Shown here: positions 16,519 through 25,304 of the stretch, piece after piece
Layout: every line of letters begins with the position of its first letter
Numbering within the stretch: position 1 is the stretch's first letter
Source: Clostridia bacterium
GTDB lineage: Bacteria; Bacillota; Clostridia; Oscillospirales; SIG627
Assembly: GCA_017440805.1 (NCBI GenBank)
Contig: JAFSGN010000022.1
Coordinates: 280,298 to 344,297, forward strand
Direction of reading: 5' to 3'
Length of the DNA stretch: 64,000 bases
Made by a program: the position numbers and the translations under genes
Notes under the pieces: generated by a model
Database searches by the model: none
What the model was told of the DNA's origin: nothing
The model's input: the letters and a program-made list of their open reading frames with translations, nothing else

Positions 16519-17574
16519 TTATTCAGCATATTTTTCAATATTTTCAAGAACTTCGTTTACCGAAGGCATCATTCCTCCGGTGCGTCCGAAAAATTCTACA
16601 GGTTTTTTGAACTGTGTTGCCAACTTTACATCTTCAACCATCTGTCCCATGCTAAGTTCTACAGCAAGGAATTTCTTTGTTGAATCAGCAAGTTGGTTTA
16701 ATCTTTCAGAGGGGAACGGCCACAAGGTTATGGGGCGGAAGAGTCCTGCCTTAATTCCTTTTTTGCGTGCGGCATTTACTGCTGATTTTGCAATACGCGC
16801 AGTTATACCGAAAGCAACAACAACTATATCTGCATCGTCGGTAAGATACTCTTCGTATTTAACCTCTGTTTTTTCAATCTTCTTATATTTTTCAAAACGC
16901 TCAATTACGGTTCTCTCAAGTTCATCGGGTTCTATGTAAAGAGAATTTACAATATTGTGTTTGCGTTTGCCGTCGTGTCCGCAGGCAGCCCATGTCTTTT
17001 CCGGTATTTCTCTTGGAGTTCTTGCTTCAAAGTCAACCGGCTCCATCATCTGACCGAGTGCGCCGTCTGCGAGAATCATTGCAGGCATTCTGTAAATATC
17101 CGAAAGGTCAAAGGCTTCCATTGTAAGGTCGGCAATTTCCTGAATTGACGCGGGTGCAAGTACAAGAATGTGCTGGTCACCGTGTCCCAGTGCTCTTGTT
17201 GCCTGATAATAGTCCGCCTGAGACGGCTGAATACCACCCAATCCGGGGCCTCCGCGTTGCACATTTACGATTACGCAAGGCAGGTCTGAACCGACAATGT
17301 ATGATATACCTTCTGATTTAAGGCTTATTCCGGGGGAAGATGACGATGTCATTACTCTTTTTCCGGTAGATGCCGCACCGAGAACCATATTTATAGCGGC
17401 AATTTCACTTTCTGCCTGCACACAAAGTCCGTCAACTTTAGGCATACGCTTTGCAAAAGTTTCCGCAACTTCGGTCTGAGGTGTTATAGGATAACCGAAG
17501 AAAAGTCGGCATCCCGCTTTTATGGCAGCTTCAGCTATTGCTTCGTTGCCTTTCATCAGTATCTTTTTACTCAT
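16519..17574 (-). CDS. vorB: 2-oxoacid:ferredoxin oxidoreductase alpha subunit (VorB-like)
   Basis: GNEAIAEAA, GYPITPQTE, ESEIAA, SSSPG.SLK.E, RGGPGLG.IQPSQ. Confidence 0.88.
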   Translation of the reverse strand: MSKKILMKGNEAIAEAAIKAGCRLFFGYPITPQTEVAETFAKRMPKVDGLCVQAESEIAAINMVLGAASTGKRVMTSSSSPGISLKSEGISYIVGSDLPCVIVNVQRGGPGLGGIQPSQADYYQATRALGHGDQHILVLAPASIQEIADLTMEAFDLSDIYRMPAMILADGALGQMMEPVDFEARTPREIPEKTWAACGHDGKRKHNIVNSLYIEPDELERTVIERFEKYKKIEKTEVKYEEYLTDDADIVVVAFGITARIAKSAVNAARKKGIKAGLFRPITLWPFPSERLNQLADSTKKFLAVELSMGQMVEDVKLATQFKKPVEFFGRTGGMMPSVNEVLENIEKYAE

Positions 17575-17813: not shown

Positions 17814-18485
17814 CTAATAATATATATGTTTTGTTATATCTCTGATAAACACCATATCTTTTTTTTGTTCCGGGGAGAACTGGCTCTCCAGAGTATCCAT
17901 TACTGTTGTGGCAGCAATTTCAAGGCCGGTAATGCGTGAAATTTCTTTGGCATATTCCATACCTGAAAGTATTATGTCACGGGTTGTTTCGATTCCGAGA
18001 TTTGTATTGTTTATAATTGCCGAAAATTTCATCCCCGATGTCTTTTCAATCTCGTACATCATTTGTGCTGCATCCACAGGGTTTTCAACCTGCGGACGGC
18101 ACATATTAACAACATAGTACATTTCATATCCGCGTTTTAAAAATCCCTGTGAAAATCCGCAGAGTGCAACAGCACCTGCATCATCGCCCCCTACATCAAA
18201 AACCGCACTTTTACCCGGCAGAAAAACCGAGTTTATATTTGCAGGGACAGAAGGAATATCAACATTTGTATTTGCGAAAACAGGTGTTATAACATGTATT
18301 CCCTGTTCCTCAAGTTCCTCCTTATTGTCCGCGGAGCGAAAAAACGGATTGACCAAATCCAAATCTATAAGTGTAATATCACTGTCTTTCATTTTGAGTG
18401 CCAGATTGACCGCCACATTTGTCTTTCCCACTCCGTAGTGACCGCATATTACATATATAACATTTTTTCTGAATATGTCTATCAA
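17814..18485 (-). CDS. P-loop NTPase (MinD/ParA/CobQ-like), function unknown
   Basis: GHYGVGKT Walker A, DLDLVNPFFRS, DVGGD. First gene of the oxidoreductase operon. Confidence 0.75.
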   Translation of the reverse strand: MIDIFRKNVIYVICGHYGVGKTNVAVNLALKMKDSDITLIDLDLVNPFFRSADNKEELEEQGIHVITPVFANTNVDIPSVPANINSVFLPGKSAVFDVGGDDAGAVALCGFSQGFLKRGYEMYYVVNMCRPQVENPVDAAQMMYEIEKTSGMKFSAIINNTNLGIETTRDIILSGMEYAKEISRITGLEIAATTVMDTLESQFSPEQKKDMVFIRDITKHIYY

Positions 18486-18636: not shown

Positions 18637-20202
18637 TTACCTCAGACCAAAGTCATAATCGTTATAGAAATATCCGCTGTCATTTCCGGAATAACCTTTT
18701 TTGAAATTTGCATAGTTTATAAAAACAGAAACTGCTCTTTCAAAAATGCCCTTAAGCTGACTTTGACTTACTTGGAAGATATCCTCCGTCAAGAACGGAA
18801 ATTGCGGCACTGCAAAATTGGAAAATCCAAGGGATATGCCGGGATGTATTTCCCCCGAATAAAAAGCAACACTATCAAAAGATATTTCCAGGGAATTTGC
18901 ACTATACAAAATATTACCGTCAGCACTGACAATTTTTTCCGGTATACCATCTTCTGTGTTCTGTATGTAAAATTCGTATACATGCTTTTCAGAATCAATT
19001 TTAAACGCACATTCTGTAAAGAACCCGGGATGTTCCGGCAACACAAGAGTTAATATATATTCATCAGAAACATCGGTGCGGTTATTTGAAAAAACACCTT
19101 TTACGGTATTTATACCATTCGTTATTTCAAACGATATGTTCCTGTCAGGTTCAATCGTAAAATCAACTTTATTTTGTGTTCCGTCACTATAACAGAACAA
19201 CTCTCCGTCAACCTTCTGCAACATTCCGCTTTTAGTGTCAAAATGAAAATTGTATATCAGCGACACATCGGTCAATAATTGCAATACACTCTCTATTCCT
19301 GACTTGAAATAATTTAAGTTATTTTCTTTTAATATATCAAAGTCAATGTCCAGATTATCACAGATTTCCGAAGGAATTAAAATTTTTAAAAATTCGTTTC
19401 CTGCTTCTGTCTGTGCTTCATATCCGGATAAAAGCACATAGAAAATGTCATACACGACCCGACTGTCAATTGTACGGGTATACTTTAATATTTTCCTGCT
19501 TTCCCCGCCTGTATCAACTGTATATTCGCTTACCTCTTTACCGGTTGTATCAAAAATCTCCTTTATTTCTGTCAAAATCAAATCTTTGATTTCACTCTTA
19601 ATATCCATATACTTTTCAAAACAACCTGAAACACTCTTGAAATATTCTCGGTCAAAGCCATGTTGCTGACAGAACATAACAACTTTTTCTTCATCGAGTT
19701 CCAAAAGTTGCCCTAAAGGAGAAACAATAAACTTATCCAGCATTTTTTCAGGGTCGGAGAAATCTATACTATATGATTTTCCTCTTCCCAACAACAAATC
19801 GGATTGTATAACCACACATGATGTATCCGCATAAACACTCAAATCCGCTGTTTCGTTCGGAATTATCCCTTTTAATTCCAAATCAATACTTATTCTTTTG
19901 TTTTTTCTGTCTGATTTTATTTTGGAAAAGATGTTGGAGTAACCGTTATAGGTATAATCTGAATATTCTGCGACCAAGGAAAGTTGGCCATTGTTTTCTG
20001 CTATAAAATTTAACGGTTTAATTTCATCTCCAAAAATTTTCTCAAAATCAACCGACCTGGATAAAACATCAACGAAATTTTTGCTCAGATAATCTGCAGT
20101 GAGATTTTTGGTTCCTGTTTTTTGCGGTATATTGCTGCATCCGCCTAAAAAAAGAACTGTTGTTAAGCCGCAAAGCAGTACTGTCAACAAGAACTTTTTC
20201 AT
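18637..20202 (-). CDS. Hypothetical lipoprotein
   Basis: MKK, hydrophobic stretch, then lipobox LGGC. SD AGGAGTG. No recognisable catalytic motif. Confidence 0.65.
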   Translation of the reverse strand: MKKFLLTVLLCGLTTVLFLGGCSNIPQKTGTKNLTADYLSKNFVDVLSRSVDFEKIFGDEIKPLNFIAENNGQLSLVAEYSDYTYNGYSNIFSKIKSDRKNKRISIDLELKGIIPNETADLSVYADTSCVVIQSDLLLGRGKSYSIDFSDPEKMLDKFIVSPLGQLLELDEEKVVMFCQQHGFDREYFKSVSGCFEKYMDIKSEIKDLILTEIKEIFDTTGKEVSEYTVDTGGESRKILKYTRTIDSRVVYDIFYVLLSGYEAQTEAGNEFLKILIPSEICDNLDIDFDILKENNLNYFKSGIESVLQLLTDVSLIYNFHFDTKSGMLQKVDGELFCYSDGTQNKVDFTIEPDRNISFEITNGINTVKGVFSNNRTDVSDEYILTLVLPEHPGFFTECAFKIDSEKHVYEFYIQNTEDGIPEKIVSADGNILYSANSLEISFDSVAFYSGEIHPGISLGFSNFAVPQFPFLTEDIFQVSQSQLKGIFERAVSVFINYANFKKGYSGNDSGYFYNDYDFGLR

Positions 20203-20276: not shown

Positions 20277-22526
20277 TCACCCAAATATTGCGGTAAATAA
20301 CACTGGCATAAACCACACTAACTGGTAACAACATATATGCAGTGCATTAACACCCGGCATACATCCCCCGCCGATAAGTGAAAGAGCAATTACCATTACA
20401 AAGGCAACTATGACAGAAATAAATTTTGTCAAAATATTGAGGGAAACATTTTTTGCGATTTTATTGCAACACAAAATACCTCTGAGCAAATCAAATGCAT
20501 TTCCTTTGCAGACCACACCGGCAGACACATTATCATAAACCTCGTCTGCAGGCAACGGAAGTGTCGATTTAACTATCCGAACATAATATTCCTTGCGACG
20601 CAAAAGTTTTGTGAGCAATGCATCATCAATATTAGGGTCGCAGGACTTTATTCCTACACAAACACCTACTCCCGTAAGTCTTGAAAGCAGTTTTTCAAAA
20701 CCACGGTATATTGAATATTTGATATAGAACTTGGCGGCAATGTTATCGCCTACAGTCATATACATTATGCGACCTACGGAATTTTCAAATGCGTCGTCTG
20801 TTGAATCTTTTACAAATCCGAAATTATACGCCAACATAAAACTTTTTTTGCCTATGTACACATCGTTTCCGTCTATGACAGTGCGTATTCCATCGGGTTC
20901 GATAGAAACAATTTCTACCGGCTGGACATCGTCCACCGCATTCTTTATATAATTCTCAAACACCGGTGCAAGAGGACCGCCCACCGTTTTAAAAATGCGT
21001 GCAGCATACATAATTGTATGGTCTATTCTGTGTTCACCGTAGGTTCTTACACTGTTAACCTTTATTCCGCCCGACGGAAAAACAACAGTATCGTTAAAGG
21101 ATACAACATCTGCAACACTATACTCCTCAAAGGTGTTTCCGCCTATCATGGCACAACCTTTTCTGAACACCCTGAAACTTTCAACAAGGTATGGCAGGGT
21201 TATATACATAATTGAAGATACAGGAAGCATGGCAAGGCACAAAATTGCAAGAGCATTAAATGCCGCATTTAAGTCACCGCTCTGAACAAAAATTATAATT
21301 GAAAAAGCTATTGATGCTATGACTACAAGAGGAAGAATAATTTTGAAATTTCTATCCGACTCCGGTGCAGTATTTATATTTCTTACCGCATCATCGACAA
21401 ATTTCGCCTTTTTGAATGAAAAAATTTCAGGGTCTTCGGGAAGGTATTCATCCAGTTCGTAAAGGTTTTCCTCGTGTTTGTCTCTTTTTTCGGCAACAAG
21501 TTTTTCACCGTCAGCCGAAAGAATTTTGAATGTAAGAAGATTTCTTCGGCTCTCCATGTAATTTTTCAGTAATGTAAACACACCGAAAAGGCAGCCAACA
21601 GATGAATAAAGCATTATTGTTTCGGGTGTGGAGGTAAAATATACCGCAACTGAATGCAAAGCACAGACTGTCATGGCAACCGCAGACAATGTATTGGAAT
21701 TAGGTTTTCCGCGGAACATTGCTTTAAAACCATCTATAAAGTTTTCATAAATAAGTGCTGCCGAAATAACAAGAAGTTGTATATCAACCAAAACCAGAAC
21801 AAGCCTCATTTTTGTCGGGTCAAGAAAAGCAGGACGCGGAATTGACGAGTTAAAAGAAAAACTTTCAATATACATCATTGCCAAAAATACAATTATTCCG
21901 CAGACTGTAAGCAAAAGAGAAAATTTGGCTGAAGAACGGTAATAATTTATAAACTGTTCTGCTTTTGACGGATCGGTATATTCGTCTATTTCAAATTGTT
22001 CTTCTTGGTCTTCTTCATCATCCTCGGTATCATTTGTATCATACGGATTGTATTCTGCGTCTGATAATCCGTCAATTGCTCCGTGGTCAACTTCACCGAA
22101 TACAACTTTCATATCATCATCAGAATCCTGATTTAATTCATCACTGTCTTCCATTGCACGGATATCTTCATCGACCTGCAGGGTACTGCGTATTTTTCCG
22201 TTACGCCTTTTACTGCGTTTTTCATTTGAAACAGATTCTTCGTCATAAATACTTTCCGCACTCTGCTCGGGCATAACAACCTCTTGGGGAGGTGTACTTG
22301 TAATCCCGAAAACAGCAGTATCTTCGTGTTCGTTTTCTGCCGGTTCAACAATAAAATTATCAATATCCTTTGTTTGTCTTTCAGTCTTGCTTTCGTCAAT
22401 CATTACATTATCAGCCGTATCTGATTCAGGCACGCCGTATTTCTTATCATATCCGTGAAAGAAATATGAGGGCGGCTTTTTCATTAGCCCCTTGGGGTCA
22501 TTGGAGATTTTGTATGTATTTGCCAT
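20277..22526 (-). CDS. Membrane protein with degenerate P1B-type ATPase architecture and an acidic N-terminal tail
   Basis: TM and domain order follows CopA, but DKTGT reads NDTVV, CPC reads LPV, HP reads GP, TGD reads SCD, and TGE and GDGxND are absent. Start MANTYK after SD GAAAGGA. Confidence 0.7.
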   Translation of the reverse strand: MANTYKISNDPKGLMKKPPSYFFHGYDKKYGVPESDTADNVMIDESKTERQTKDIDNFIVEPAENEHEDTAVFGITSTPPQEVVMPEQSAESIYDEESVSNEKRSKRRNGKIRSTLQVDEDIRAMEDSDELNQDSDDDMKVVFGEVDHGAIDGLSDAEYNPYDTNDTEDDEEDQEEQFEIDEYTDPSKAEQFINYYRSSAKFSLLLTVCGIIVFLAMMYIESFSFNSSIPRPAFLDPTKMRLVLVLVDIQLLVISAALIYENFIDGFKAMFRGKPNSNTLSAVAMTVCALHSVAVYFTSTPETIMLYSSVGCLFGVFTLLKNYMESRRNLLTFKILSADGEKLVAEKRDKHEENLYELDEYLPEDPEIFSFKKAKFVDDAVRNINTAPESDRNFKIILPLVVIASIAFSIIIFVQSGDLNAAFNALAILCLAMLPVSSIMYITLPYLVESFRVFRKGCAMIGGNTFEEYSVADVVSFNDTVVFPSGGIKVNSVRTYGEHRIDHTIMYAARIFKTVGGPLAPVFENYIKNAVDDVQPVEIVSIEPDGIRTVIDGNDVYIGKKSFMLAYNFGFVKDSTDDAFENSVGRIMYMTVGDNIAAKFYIKYSIYRGFEKLLSRLTGVGVCVGIKSCDPNIDDALLTKLLRRKEYYVRIVKSTLPLPADEVYDNVSAGVVCKGNAFDLLRGILCCNKIAKNVSLNILTKFISVIVAFVMVIALSLIGGGCMPGVNALHICCYQLVWFMPVLFTAIFG

Positions 22527-22692
22527 ATTTCTGACTGTTCCTTTCCGTGCCTCACGGCACAAACCGTAAAACTGAAATAAACTGCTTCATGGGTAGACCG
22601 TATATTATTTCAGGTAAACCCGAAAGAATAAACAATGATGTAAAATGTTTTTTCAGATTTCTGTTTCTGATTTCTGATATACCTTATAGTTA

Positions 22693-23562
22693 TCAATTGC
22701 TGTTTCGTCCGCTTATTGCACGATAGAGGACTGCCGCAGCGGCACATGATACATTAAGTGAATTCACCTTACCTCTCATCGGCAGGGAAATAATATAATC
22801 GGAATTTTTCAAAACCTGTTTTGAAATACCGTTTTCTTCGCTTCCGAGGATTATACAAAGAGGAATATCATAATCCACACTGTTGTAGTCGGTTCCACCT
22901 GCTTCGCAGGACATAATCCACAGTCCTTTTTTCTTCAATTCCTCTATGGTGGCATTGATATTTGTAACCTTAGCCACCGCCATATGCTCTATTGCACCAG
23001 CCGATGCCTTTGCAACCGCGGGACTCAACCCCACGCTTCTTCTCTTTGGTATTATTACCCCGTGTACTCCGGCACCCTCACAACACCGTATAAGCGAGCC
23101 GAGATTATTAGGGTCGCATATTTCATCCGCTATTACAACAAAAGGCTTTTCACCTCTCTGAGTTGCTATCTCAAGGATTTCGTCAACTGTTGAGTAACCT
23201 TTAAACGCCGCCATAGCCACAATTCCCTGATGGGAAGTGAATCCGGAAAGCGCGTCAAGTTTACTTTTTTCGGTTTCAATTATCGGTATTCCTCTTGAAA
23301 TAGCCTCTGCCGCCAATGCCACAATTGAACCCTCGCGTTCTCCTTGCTGAGTATATATCTTATCAATTGTGCGTCCGCTTTTAAGAAGTTCCCGAACAGC
23401 GTTACGACCTGCAACAATACCGCTGTCGACCAGTTCATCTCCGCTTTTTTCAAAGCCTTCTCTTGTGGGATGTTTACGGTATTCCGTTTTTTTTCTGTCG
23501 GAAAAATCTCTGCCGTGCTGCTTTGAATTTTTTGCATATTTTGCCGTATTTTTGTTATTCAT
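22693..23562 (-). CDS. rlmB: 23S rRNA Gm2251 2'-O-methyltransferase
   Basis: GRNAV.E, HQG.VA, DP.NLGS..R, GSE..G, SLNVS SPOUT motifs. Confidence 0.93.
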   Translation of the reverse strand: MNNKNTAKYAKNSKQHGRDFSDRKKTEYRKHPTREGFEKSGDELVDSGIVAGRNAVRELLKSGRTIDKIYTQQGEREGSIVALAAEAISRGIPIIETEKSKLDALSGFTSHQGIVAMAAFKGYSTVDEILEIATQRGEKPFVVIADEICDPNNLGSLIRCCEGAGVHGVIIPKRRSVGLSPAVAKASAGAIEHMAVAKVTNINATIEELKKKGLWIMSCEAGGTDYNSVDYDIPLCIILGSEENGISKQVLKNSDYIISLPMRGKVNSLNVSCAAAAVLYRAISGRNSN

Positions 23563-24339: not shown

Positions 24340-25224
24340 TCAGATTATATTCAGTTCTTTCATTATGCTCTTAAGTTTTTCATAATTCTTTTCTTCAATC
24401 TCGTAAAGAGGCAGACGGAGTTCTCCGTTGCAATATCCCATAATCTGCATTGCTGCCTTTACGGGAATGGGATTCACCTCACAGAACAAAGCCGAAATAA
24501 GTTCATGATATTTCAACTGGAGTTTCAGACTTTCTTTTGTCTGTCCCTTATCATACAACTCACAAATATCGTGAACCTGCTTTGGAATAAGATGAGAAAG
24601 TACCGAAATGACACCCTGTCCTCCCAGAGACATAACAGGTACTATCTGGTCGTCGTTACCGGAATAAAGGTTAATCTGGTCTCCGCACAAAGCCATTGTA
24701 TGTGCTATGGCAGACATATCTCCGCCTGCTTCCTTTATACCCGATATGTTAGGATGCTTGGCAAGTTCTGCGTATGTTTCAGGTTTAATGCACAAGCCTG
24801 TACGAGAGGGAACATTATAAACAATTATAGGCTTATCAACATTATCTGCAACTTTATAGAAATGCTTGACAAGACCTCTCTGTGTTGTTTTATTGTAATA
24901 CGGAGTTACCATAAGAAGTGCGTCTGCACCTATTTCACATGCTCTTTTGGAAAGTGATACTGCATATTCGGTATCATTGCTTCCTGTACCGCAAAGTACA
25001 GGAACACGGCCTGCAGTATGCTTGATGCAAAACTCCATGACATCCATGTGTTCCTGGTCATTCAAGGTGGAGGGTTCACCTGTTGTTCCGCAAACTACAA
25101 GTGCATCAATTCCTCCGTTGATTTGAAAGTCTATAAGACGGGCAAAGGATTCATAATCTACCTTGCCATCCTTAAAAGGTGTTATAAGCGCTGTGGCTGC
25201 TCCGCGAAAAACCGGTTTTTTCAT
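24340..25224 (-). CDS. dapA: 4-hydroxy-tetrahydrodipicolinate synthase
   Basis: ALITPF, GTTGE, PYYNK, YNVPSRT, GIKEA, NPIPVK. Start MKKPV after SD GAAAGGA. Confidence 0.95.
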   Translation of the reverse strand: MKKPVFRGAATALITPFKDGKVDYESFARLIDFQINGGIDALVVCGTTGEPSTLNDQEHMDVMEFCIKHTAGRVPVLCGTGSNDTEYAVSLSKRACEIGADALLMVTPYYNKTTQRGLVKHFYKVADNVDKPIIVYNVPSRTGLCIKPETYAELAKHPNISGIKEAGGDMSAIAHTMALCGDQINLYSGNDDQIVPVMSLGGQGVISVLSHLIPKQVHDICELYDKGQTKESLKLQLKYHELISALFCEVNPIPVKAAMQIMGYCNGELRLPLYEIEEKNYEKLKSIMKELNII

Positions 25225-25304
25225 AATACATATGTCCTTTCTGTTTGGAATGATATGACTGCATACAAAATATGCGAAAAAATTGAAATATAACAAAAAA
25301 ACAG

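Follow-up and report, generated by a model that had tools for sequence, protein, structure and literature searches.

The stretch of DNA considered here, a window of 64,000 nucleotides from contig JAFSGN010000022.1 of a Clostridia bacterium, carries the genes dapA, dapB and rlmB, the last encoding an RlmB-type SpoU methyltransferase, and downstream of them on the same strand an open reading frame (ORF) that is termed X in this work. X lies on the minus strand at 20277-22526 and comprises 749 codons and a stop. Its product is a homologue of the CopA-type heavy-metal ATPases which lacks all elements required for the pump cycle and appears to have been retained for a different purpose. The original prediction, made from the letters of the window, had described an ORF that is long, intact and oriented in the dapA-dapB-rlmB direction, and the frame indeed runs without interruption and is co-directional with all three genes. 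It ends with the stop codon at 20277-20279. The ATG at 22526 was chosen as start codon over an upstream TTG at 22562 because orthologues share the N-terminal sequence MANxYK.

Homology of X to P1B ATPases

X is a true homologue of P1B (CopA-type) ATPases, by structure as well as by sequence. A Pfam search with the X protein gave no match, and the NCBIfam model TIGR01525 (heavy-metal P-type ATPase) reached it with an E value of 1.9e-7 and 30.4 bits against a model cut-off of 346. With the single sequence as query, the best phmmer match in the PDB was the Cd2+ pump 7qbz (E 8.9e-4); a profile of the X family matched CopA from Legionella (LpCopA, 3rfu) by sequence with E 1.1e-6. The same genome encodes, outside the window, an intact CopA of 832 aa (L079:125-2623; G000:C22:42424-44922) that carries the HMA CxxC, CPC, DKTGT, SEHP, TGDN and GDGIND motifs. 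Residues 206-566 of X were placed on residues 89-524 of this CopA by hhalign at a probability of 96.4%, and the hidden Markov model (HMM) of the family scored it with 37 bits. The C-terminal third of X gave no usable alignment with the same protein (hhalign probability 0.4%).

With 21 family members as input, AlphaFold2 modelled residues ~180-749 confidently (predicted local distance difference test, pLDDT, mostly 85-95; predicted template modelling score 0.69), and the model shows eight membrane helices. Foldseek searches with this model returned P1B pumps on top, LpCopA 4bbj (E 8.4e-17) being followed by ATP7B, ZntA and CadA. VIA-align superimposed 491 residues on LpCopA 3rfu_A with Z 23.4; its ranks 1-8 (3rfu, 4bbj, three ATP7B and three HMA4 entries) fell between Z 18.5 and 23.4, and among the top 12 rows P1B pumps reached 16.6-23.4 compared with ~13-14.6 for KdpB and P2/P3 pumps. 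Two more ATP7B mutant entries scored 13.9-14.6. The nucleotide-binding-type (N) domain of X fits the Menkes N domain 2kmv (Z 14.5, root mean square deviation 2.6 A, 125 residues) and that of CopA, 2voy_J (Z 13.3, 2.5 A, 114 residues). X thus shares with the P1B-1 Cu+-ATPases (Legionella CopA 3rfu/4bbj, ATP7B, HMA4) the eight helices with MA, MB and the MB' platform, the proline of M4, the folds of the phosphorylation (P) and N domains and, between MA and the TGD strand, a sequence that can be aligned. P1B-2 Zn2+/Cd2+-ATPases (ZntA 4umv/4umw, CadA 7qbz) have the same fold with slightly lower structural scores (Z 16.6-18.0), and the losses of X relative to them are the same as against CopA. KdpB and the P2/P3 pumps have the general P-type architecture in common with X; they lack the MA/MB helices of X and the P1B pumps and score clearly lower. 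The likeness to P1B pumps that the original prediction had proposed is found by comparisons of the HHpred, AlphaFold and Foldseek type, and it stands far above chance by the TIGR01525 match, the family profile, Foldseek and VIA-align alike.

All six motif resemblances that had been noticed by eye were reproduced by alignment programs. With the own CopA as partner, hhalign placed the platform segment GFKAMFRGKPNSNTL on GFRSLMHLSPNMDTL (PNSNTL on PNMDTL, at the probability of 96.4% given above) and the M2 segment LYSS...LLKNYMESR on LYFES...VGKLLEAK (MESRR on LEAKTK). In M4, LAMLPVSS falls on ISCPCALG with the proline kept (LPV on CPC). Motif I, VVSFNDTVVFPSG, falls on AIAFDKTGTLTIG (SFNDTVV on (V/F)DKTGT), and the nucleotide motif GGPL on SEHPL, while KSCDP was paired with LTGD when the family profile was compared with the PDB. 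The Asp of NDT had been described as sitting one residue off, and it is indeed displaced by one residue, following the canonical Asp; positions 21081-21095 encode N478-V482 within the motif-I segment.

Lost and retained elements

Motifs were counted in 155 full-length family members, which remained after 13 of 168 proteins shorter than 650 aa had been left out of the residue-conservation alignment, and in 74 locus-derived ORFs; the own CopA served as positive control and scored positive for all motifs. DKTGT, GDG.ND (motif IV, the Mg2+ site) and the CxxC of the HMA domain occur in 0 of the 155 members and in 0 of the 74 ORFs, and the predicted absence of the GDGxND hinge thereby extends to every family member counted. 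Unlike P1B-1 pumps, X has no HMA domain; it has LPV where they have CPC (LP[x] in the family), the family reading [D/E/N]-D-x-[E/D]-V replaces DKTGT, of which X (NDTVV) lacks the K, T, G and T, and GGPL stands for SEHPL, the His of which is lost. The metal ligands YN (M5) and MxxSS (M6) are absent from X. In the family the M4 triplet at 434-436 reads LPL, LPA, MPV and the like; the Cys residues are gone and only Pro is kept. Both the His and the Glu of the adenine pocket are replaced (GGPL, F512), [VLI]GGPL being present in 109/155 members and [ST]EHP in 1/155. The column of the canonical phosphorylated Asp holds D in 64, E in 33 and N in 17 of 155 members, and this loose conservation fits the absence of a phospho-enzyme. 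The Pfam domains PF00122 and PF00702 match 1/51 and 0/51 members, respectively.

Two of the losses are deletions. The actuator (A) domain is ~75 residues shorter than that of CopA, a remnant of 52 aa being left according to hhalign with the own CopA. LDEYLP was aligned on the TGESIP loop with low confidence, and the Glu column (E in 55, D in 35 of 152) holds no conserved TGE. The original prediction that the TGE domain is missing is therefore correct for the TGE itself; the domain has been cut down and is not wholly gone. The second half of the P domain, with GDGxND, is ~34 residues shorter (between the TGD Asp and the M5 stalk X has 46 residues and the own CopA 80); this deletion, together with the pairing of SAGVVCKGN..LLRGI with ESADVVLMKSN..AALRL, was derived by reading and length counting only.

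The further claim that all catalytic and metal sites are erased holds for the elements of the pump cycle and goes too far for the rest. Some of the strongest conservation in the family falls on the Pro of M4 (149/155), the T/S and the D of the TGD motif (154/154 each) and D479, the Asp beside the former phosphorylation position (153/155). Judged by the alignments, the former phosphorylation pocket has been remodelled rather than erased. The family reads S-F-[D64/E33/N17]-D(153/155)-[K/T/R]-[E82/D50]-V-F-P in motif I, so that the second residue after D479 is D or E in 132/155 members (D-x-[D/E]); X itself has N478 and V481, which leaves D479 alone. In the TGD region T/S628, D630 and P631 are each present in 154/154 members, the Gly is replaced and a Pro follows ([KR]-[TS]-x-D-P-N). 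D634 (D in 96, N in 41 of 154) forms a D630-x-x-x-D634 pattern on the motif II strand. G517-P518-L519 is near-invariant, and residue 653 is basic in 142/154 members.

In place of the metal-binding domain X carries a tail that had been recognized beforehand as acidic and of low complexity (~190 aa). Residues 1-178 have pLDDT values below 50, contain 27% D+E at a net charge of -29, and hold no HMA domain. The tails of the family vary from 77 to 598 aa (median 265), consist of 26.5% D+E and are net negative in 154/155 members. Pfam recognizes no domain in those of the 22 longest members, where a single low-complexity match, to Extensin, falls far short of the cut-off. Most close relatives possess a short conserved tail helix (DETxxLLxxxFG-like, alignment columns ~335-360), which is deleted in X; of the 155 tails, 28 contain the 4-mer AFGM and 25 the 4-mer DETD. 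The features of X and its immediate upstream region are compiled in Table 1.

Table 1. Positions of X, its parts and the adjoining upstream features in the window
Feature	Positions	Strand	Basis
Whole ORF X, putative P1B-ATPase-derived pseudo-pump, 749 aa + stop	20277..22526	-	ORF and homology
Conserved N-terminal peptide MANTYKISNDPK (subfamily M-[AS]-x-x-Y-[KR]-[FIL])	22491..22526	-	alignment; N-termini of locus ORFs; regular expression 28/155
Acidic disordered tail (residues 1-178), in place of HMA metal-binding domain	21993..22526	-	pLDDT <50
E-Y-T motif just before helix MA (E182 142/155)	21975..21983	-	alignment
Membrane helices MA, MB/MB' platform, M1, M2 (residues 186-336)	21519..21971	-	model helices; hhalign from own CopA residue 89; family HMM
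MB' platform helix YENFIDGFKAMFRGKPNSNTLSA (G266 146/155)	21681..21749	-	alignment
A domain remnant, 52 aa (K342 153/155, E354 141/155, F376 146/155)	21363..21518	-	alignment; pLDDT 69-88
M3-M4 (residues 389-455; Pro435 149/155, Pro445 153/155; LPV for CPC, no flanking Cys)	21162..21362	-	alignment
Remodelled motif I SFNDTVVFP (family S-F-[D/E/N]-D-[K/T/R]-[E/D]-V-F-P), on xxDKTGTxT	21075..21101	-	alignments
N domain (residues 487-584)	20775..21068	-	VIA-align to 2kmv and 2voy_J
GGPL in place of SEHPL (G517 154/155), adenine-binding His gone	20970..20981	-	alignment
Second half of P domain (residues 585-676), without GDGxND	20499..20774	-	motif counts and length comparison
Second hinge strand AAKFYIKY (K599 150/154, Y604 154/154), on CopA strand bearing D-x-x-K	20715..20738	-	alignment
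KSCDPNID, LTGDN counterpart	20625..20648	-	alignment, conservation counts
M5-M6 (residues 677-749), new conserved Y-Q-x-x-W-x-x-P (Q735 139/150, W738 140/150, P741 127/151)	20280..20498	-	model and alignment
rlmB-X spacer, 166 nt to ATG, unusually long	22527..22692	-	median gap elsewhere 20 nt
rlmB (SpoU_sub_bind + SpoU_methylase), invariant upstream partner gene	22693..23562	-	Pfam and synteny

Distribution, constraint and linkage to rlmB

An exhaustive phmmer search of 1.84 billion representatives assigned 2684 of them to the X family at E<=1e-3; the number falls to 1922 for E<=1e-10 and to 476 for E<=1e-30. Most of the top 150 matches cover residues ~180-749, and identities are mostly 25-37%, six rows being higher (up to 62%); about a dozen are shorter fragments, and N-terminal lengths vary. 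Matches in the ESM Atlas were confined to unnamed Bacillota clusters. Among proteins of 1312-3745 aa no longer, fused form of X was found at E<=1e-3, which is weak evidence. A relative is present in 76 species genomes, nearly all of them metagenome-assembled or from uncultured isolates and many from animal-gut or rumen samples; their titles name Oscillospiraceae, Eubacteriales, Clostridia or Ruminococcus, and the order in question is probably Oscillospirales in the sense of the GTDB. In an even sample across the class, in which one genome was left unscored, X was present at E<=1e-20 in 8/10 other genomes of its own order compared with 0/289 in other orders. Within the order, 237/301 genomes (203/257 of high quality) and 30/30 sampled families have it at E<=1e-15, as a rule as one intact copy per genome. 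Five genomes from families with low counts were all matched by a broader profile (E 2e-31 to 7e-51), and such families probably hold divergent copies. Among the genomes sampled X is therefore confined to one order, in which it reaches all 30 families sampled. A link to sporulation was considered and dropped: Spo0A is found in 267/301 genomes of the order, yet 17/20 listed Spo0A-negative genomes keep X (14 further Spo0A-negative genomes are unlisted).

Since synonymous divergence (dS) is saturated even against the orthologue from the same genus, the ratio of nonsynonymous to synonymous differences (pN/pS) and regional identities are usable here instead of dN/dS. Compared with that orthologue, the cytosolic headpiece is 76% identical and the best-conserved part of X; identity is 54% for MA-M4 plus the remnant of the A domain, 51% for M5-M6 and 44% for the tail. 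Where identity across the family drops to 20-23%, F/Y483-P484, G559, Y604, D630, W738 and P741 are kept in 5/5 and D479 as well as the acidic +2 residue in 4/5 cases; GGPL and K599 are lost. Together with the distribution, this pattern supports long-term purifying constraint on a protein that has been repurposed rather than decayed, as the original prediction had it. The opposite explanation, according to which X is a CopA gene in recent decay or a functionless artefact of annotation, can draw on the missing motifs and nothing else. It is countered by the intact frame of 749 codons, the occurrence in all 30 sampled families, the maintenance of invariant residues down to 20% identity, the absence of DKTGT and GDGxND from every one of the 155 members and the separate intact CopA of the same genome, and we regard it as refuted. 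Because of that CopA, X would be an addition to the real copper pump and not a substitute for it.

The second trait of the family is its neighbour. In 66/76 loci the next gene upstream, on the same strand, is rlmB, and in the other 10 the match starts less than 600 bases from the end of the record. At 57 loci the gap between the stop codon of rlmB and the start of X ranges from -44 to 60 nucleotides, with a median of 20. Even the most divergent members (~20% identity) show the linkage in 5/5 cases, and adjacency of rlmB and X is thus conserved across the order. At about 6-10 loci (L043-L070 and others) a cell-division hydrolase module with genes for FtsE, FtsX, an M23 peptidase and an S41 protease resembling CtpB is found upstream of rlmB-X; at about 11-12 other loci this place is taken by genes for a sigma-70-like factor of 205 aa and a zinc-finger protein of the treble-clef type. 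The lipoprotein and ParA-like genes downstream of X in the window adjoin X in 0/76 loci (E<=1e-5).

Possible function of a P1B-derived membrane protein

The Post-Albers cycle of P-type ATPases needs the A domain, the Mg2+ site, the adenine pocket and the metal ligands. As these elements are absent from X, the cycle should be impossible, and with the pump parts lost and the gene nevertheless conserved beside rlmB across an order, X must do another job. It is above all the headpiece and the remodelled pocket that have been conserved over long times, which argues for a binding function; we infer that X carries out no ATP-driven transport and works by binding. With moderate confidence we therefore read X as a non-cycling "pseudo-pump", a membrane-anchored adaptor or ligand-binding scaffold. 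It stems from a heavy-metal pump of the CopA type (P1B) and has kept the eight-helix membrane domain, the MB' docking platform, the proline kink in M4 and a compact headpiece of P and N domains. Lost on the way were HMA, some two thirds of the A domain, the ligands Cys-Pro-Cys, YN and MxxSS, DKTGT, the adenine-pocket His and the ~34 residues with GDGxND. The headpiece, presumably rigid, may offer its remodelled pocket (D479, T/S628, D630-P631, K599, Y604) to a partner protein, a small ligand or a cation, while the long acidic tail would reach into the cytoplasm. X would share a transcript with RlmB, the 23S rRNA methyltransferase, and hence be produced in step with growth.

Three observations weigh against this adaptor or scaffold function. 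The clustering of ORFs from the 76 loci, two of which (L046 and L076) had no called X ORF, yielded no conserved neighbour besides rlmB. The pocket keeps an Asp, a Thr/Ser and another Asp, and D-x-[D/E] as found in 132/155 members is the signature of HAD phosphatases, which makes some phosphoryl or metal chemistry possible. Finally, a passive conduction path could make use of the proline of M4 and of polar residues conserved within the membrane (Q250 in 146/155 members, Q735). The second point leads to the alternative that X has stayed an enzyme and acts at the membrane as a phosphatase, phosphotransferase or phospho-sensor of the HAD type. D479 would then be the nucleophile and the +2 residue the general acid/base, perhaps with a donor other than ATP. 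The P domain has the HAD fold, as in HAD phosphatases and pseudo-phosphatases, and the family's D-x-[D/E] resembles HAD motif I; T/S628 occupies the motif II position, the basic residue at 653 is widely kept, and divergent members read TDLDIFP, TDEDVFP, TDSDLFP or DDSELFP. The strand with motif IV, which would provide the catalytic Mg2+, is however deleted in all members, and unlike in HAD phosphatases the domain sits in a P1B membrane body together with an N domain. X has Val at +2 and Asn at -1, so that the flanking acids must be dispensable in its lineage, the His and Glu of the adenine pocket are replaced, and K599 and GGPL are not retained in the most divergent members. An enzymatic role is on these grounds unlikely.

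The conduction path is the core of a different proposal, in which X is a passive channel or uniporter for an ion or small solute and the headpiece its regulator. The eight helices are kept, as are the helix-breaking M4 proline and polar or otherwise conserved residues of MB and M6 (Q250, Q735, W738, P741), and CopA in the E2P state appears near the top of both fold searches (4bbj first in Foldseek, 3rfu and then 4bbj in VIA-align). That the transmembrane part is less conserved than the headpiece (54% versus 76%), that all known ion ligands are lost and that D248 is present in only 85/155 members makes a channel quite unlikely. The close linkage of the two genes raises the question whether X tethers RlmB or late 50S assembly intermediates to the membrane, the rlmB-X operon then standing for a physical complex. 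This adjacency is the only conserved synteny, is order-wide, persists at 20% identity and has the short median gap given above; it can equally reflect co-regulation alone. The N-terminal extension of RlmB is net positive in 28/51 cases with a median of +1 and hence not consistently basic, which leaves a charge pairing with the acidic tail unsupported, and a predicted complex of X(180-749) with RlmB scored 0.00, which carries no weight either way. We also know of no precedent for a membrane tether of RlmB or of 50S intermediates. A tether appears improbable. A bolder version of the scaffold reading makes X the first bacterial "receptor" derived from a fossil ion pump: its pocket, having regained the D-x-D/E signature of HAD phosphatases, would serve to bind or convert a phosphorylated metabolite or a divalent cation, and the locked P1B body with its acidic tail would relay this state to membrane partners, coupling envelope physiology to ribosome biogenesis via the rlmB-X operon as a housekeeping system of the whole order, possibly an essential one. 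We consider this conceivable and rather doubtful.

In the abstract-level view provided by a full-text literature search, no bacterial family of non-catalytic P-type ATPases is described. P4-ATPase-like modules fused to guanylate cyclases in apicomplexans and ciliates are a further case in which, as proposed for X, a P-type body has a role beyond classic pumping. These modules are eukaryotic, of the P4 type and cyclase-fused, and in Plasmodium the activity of the module is reported as needed, so that it is not a dead scaffold. To our knowledge, there is no described bacterial P-type branch that keeps the body and drops the engine; we infer that the X family is such a non-catalytic, order-wide branch of the P1B ATPases. 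The family is large, escapes Pfam and is present almost throughout a major clostridial order of gut and rumen; X is therefore a core gene of abundant gut bacteria that has gone unannotated. Few membrane machines are understood as well as the P-type ATPases. As a natural experiment, the family can tell which pieces a P1B pump may lose without its fold becoming unstable, and it gives access to a new membrane function. It also raises the question of the very tight link to an rRNA methyltransferase gene.

A few further features of the locus deserve mention. Just 5' of the ribosome-binding site of X, a small hairpin (GTGCC-GTGA-GGCAC, 22547-22560, minus strand) lies in the rlmB-X spacer and is not followed by a T-run. 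Directly downstream of X, an ORF of 521 aa at 18637-20202 (minus strand) encodes, by reading, a signal peptide and a lipobox-like LGGCS; it matched no Pfam family. The ORF at 17814-18485 (minus strand, 223 aa) specifies a ParA/NUBPL-like P-loop protein (PF10609, E 1.2e-6) and is followed at 16519-17574 by a gene for the alpha subunit of a 2-oxoacid:ferredoxin oxidoreductase. On the upstream side, the dapA ORF as listed (24340-25296, minus strand, TTG start, 318 aa) probably has its true start later, at an internal MKKPVF, its first ~24 residues resembling read-through of the upstream spacer.

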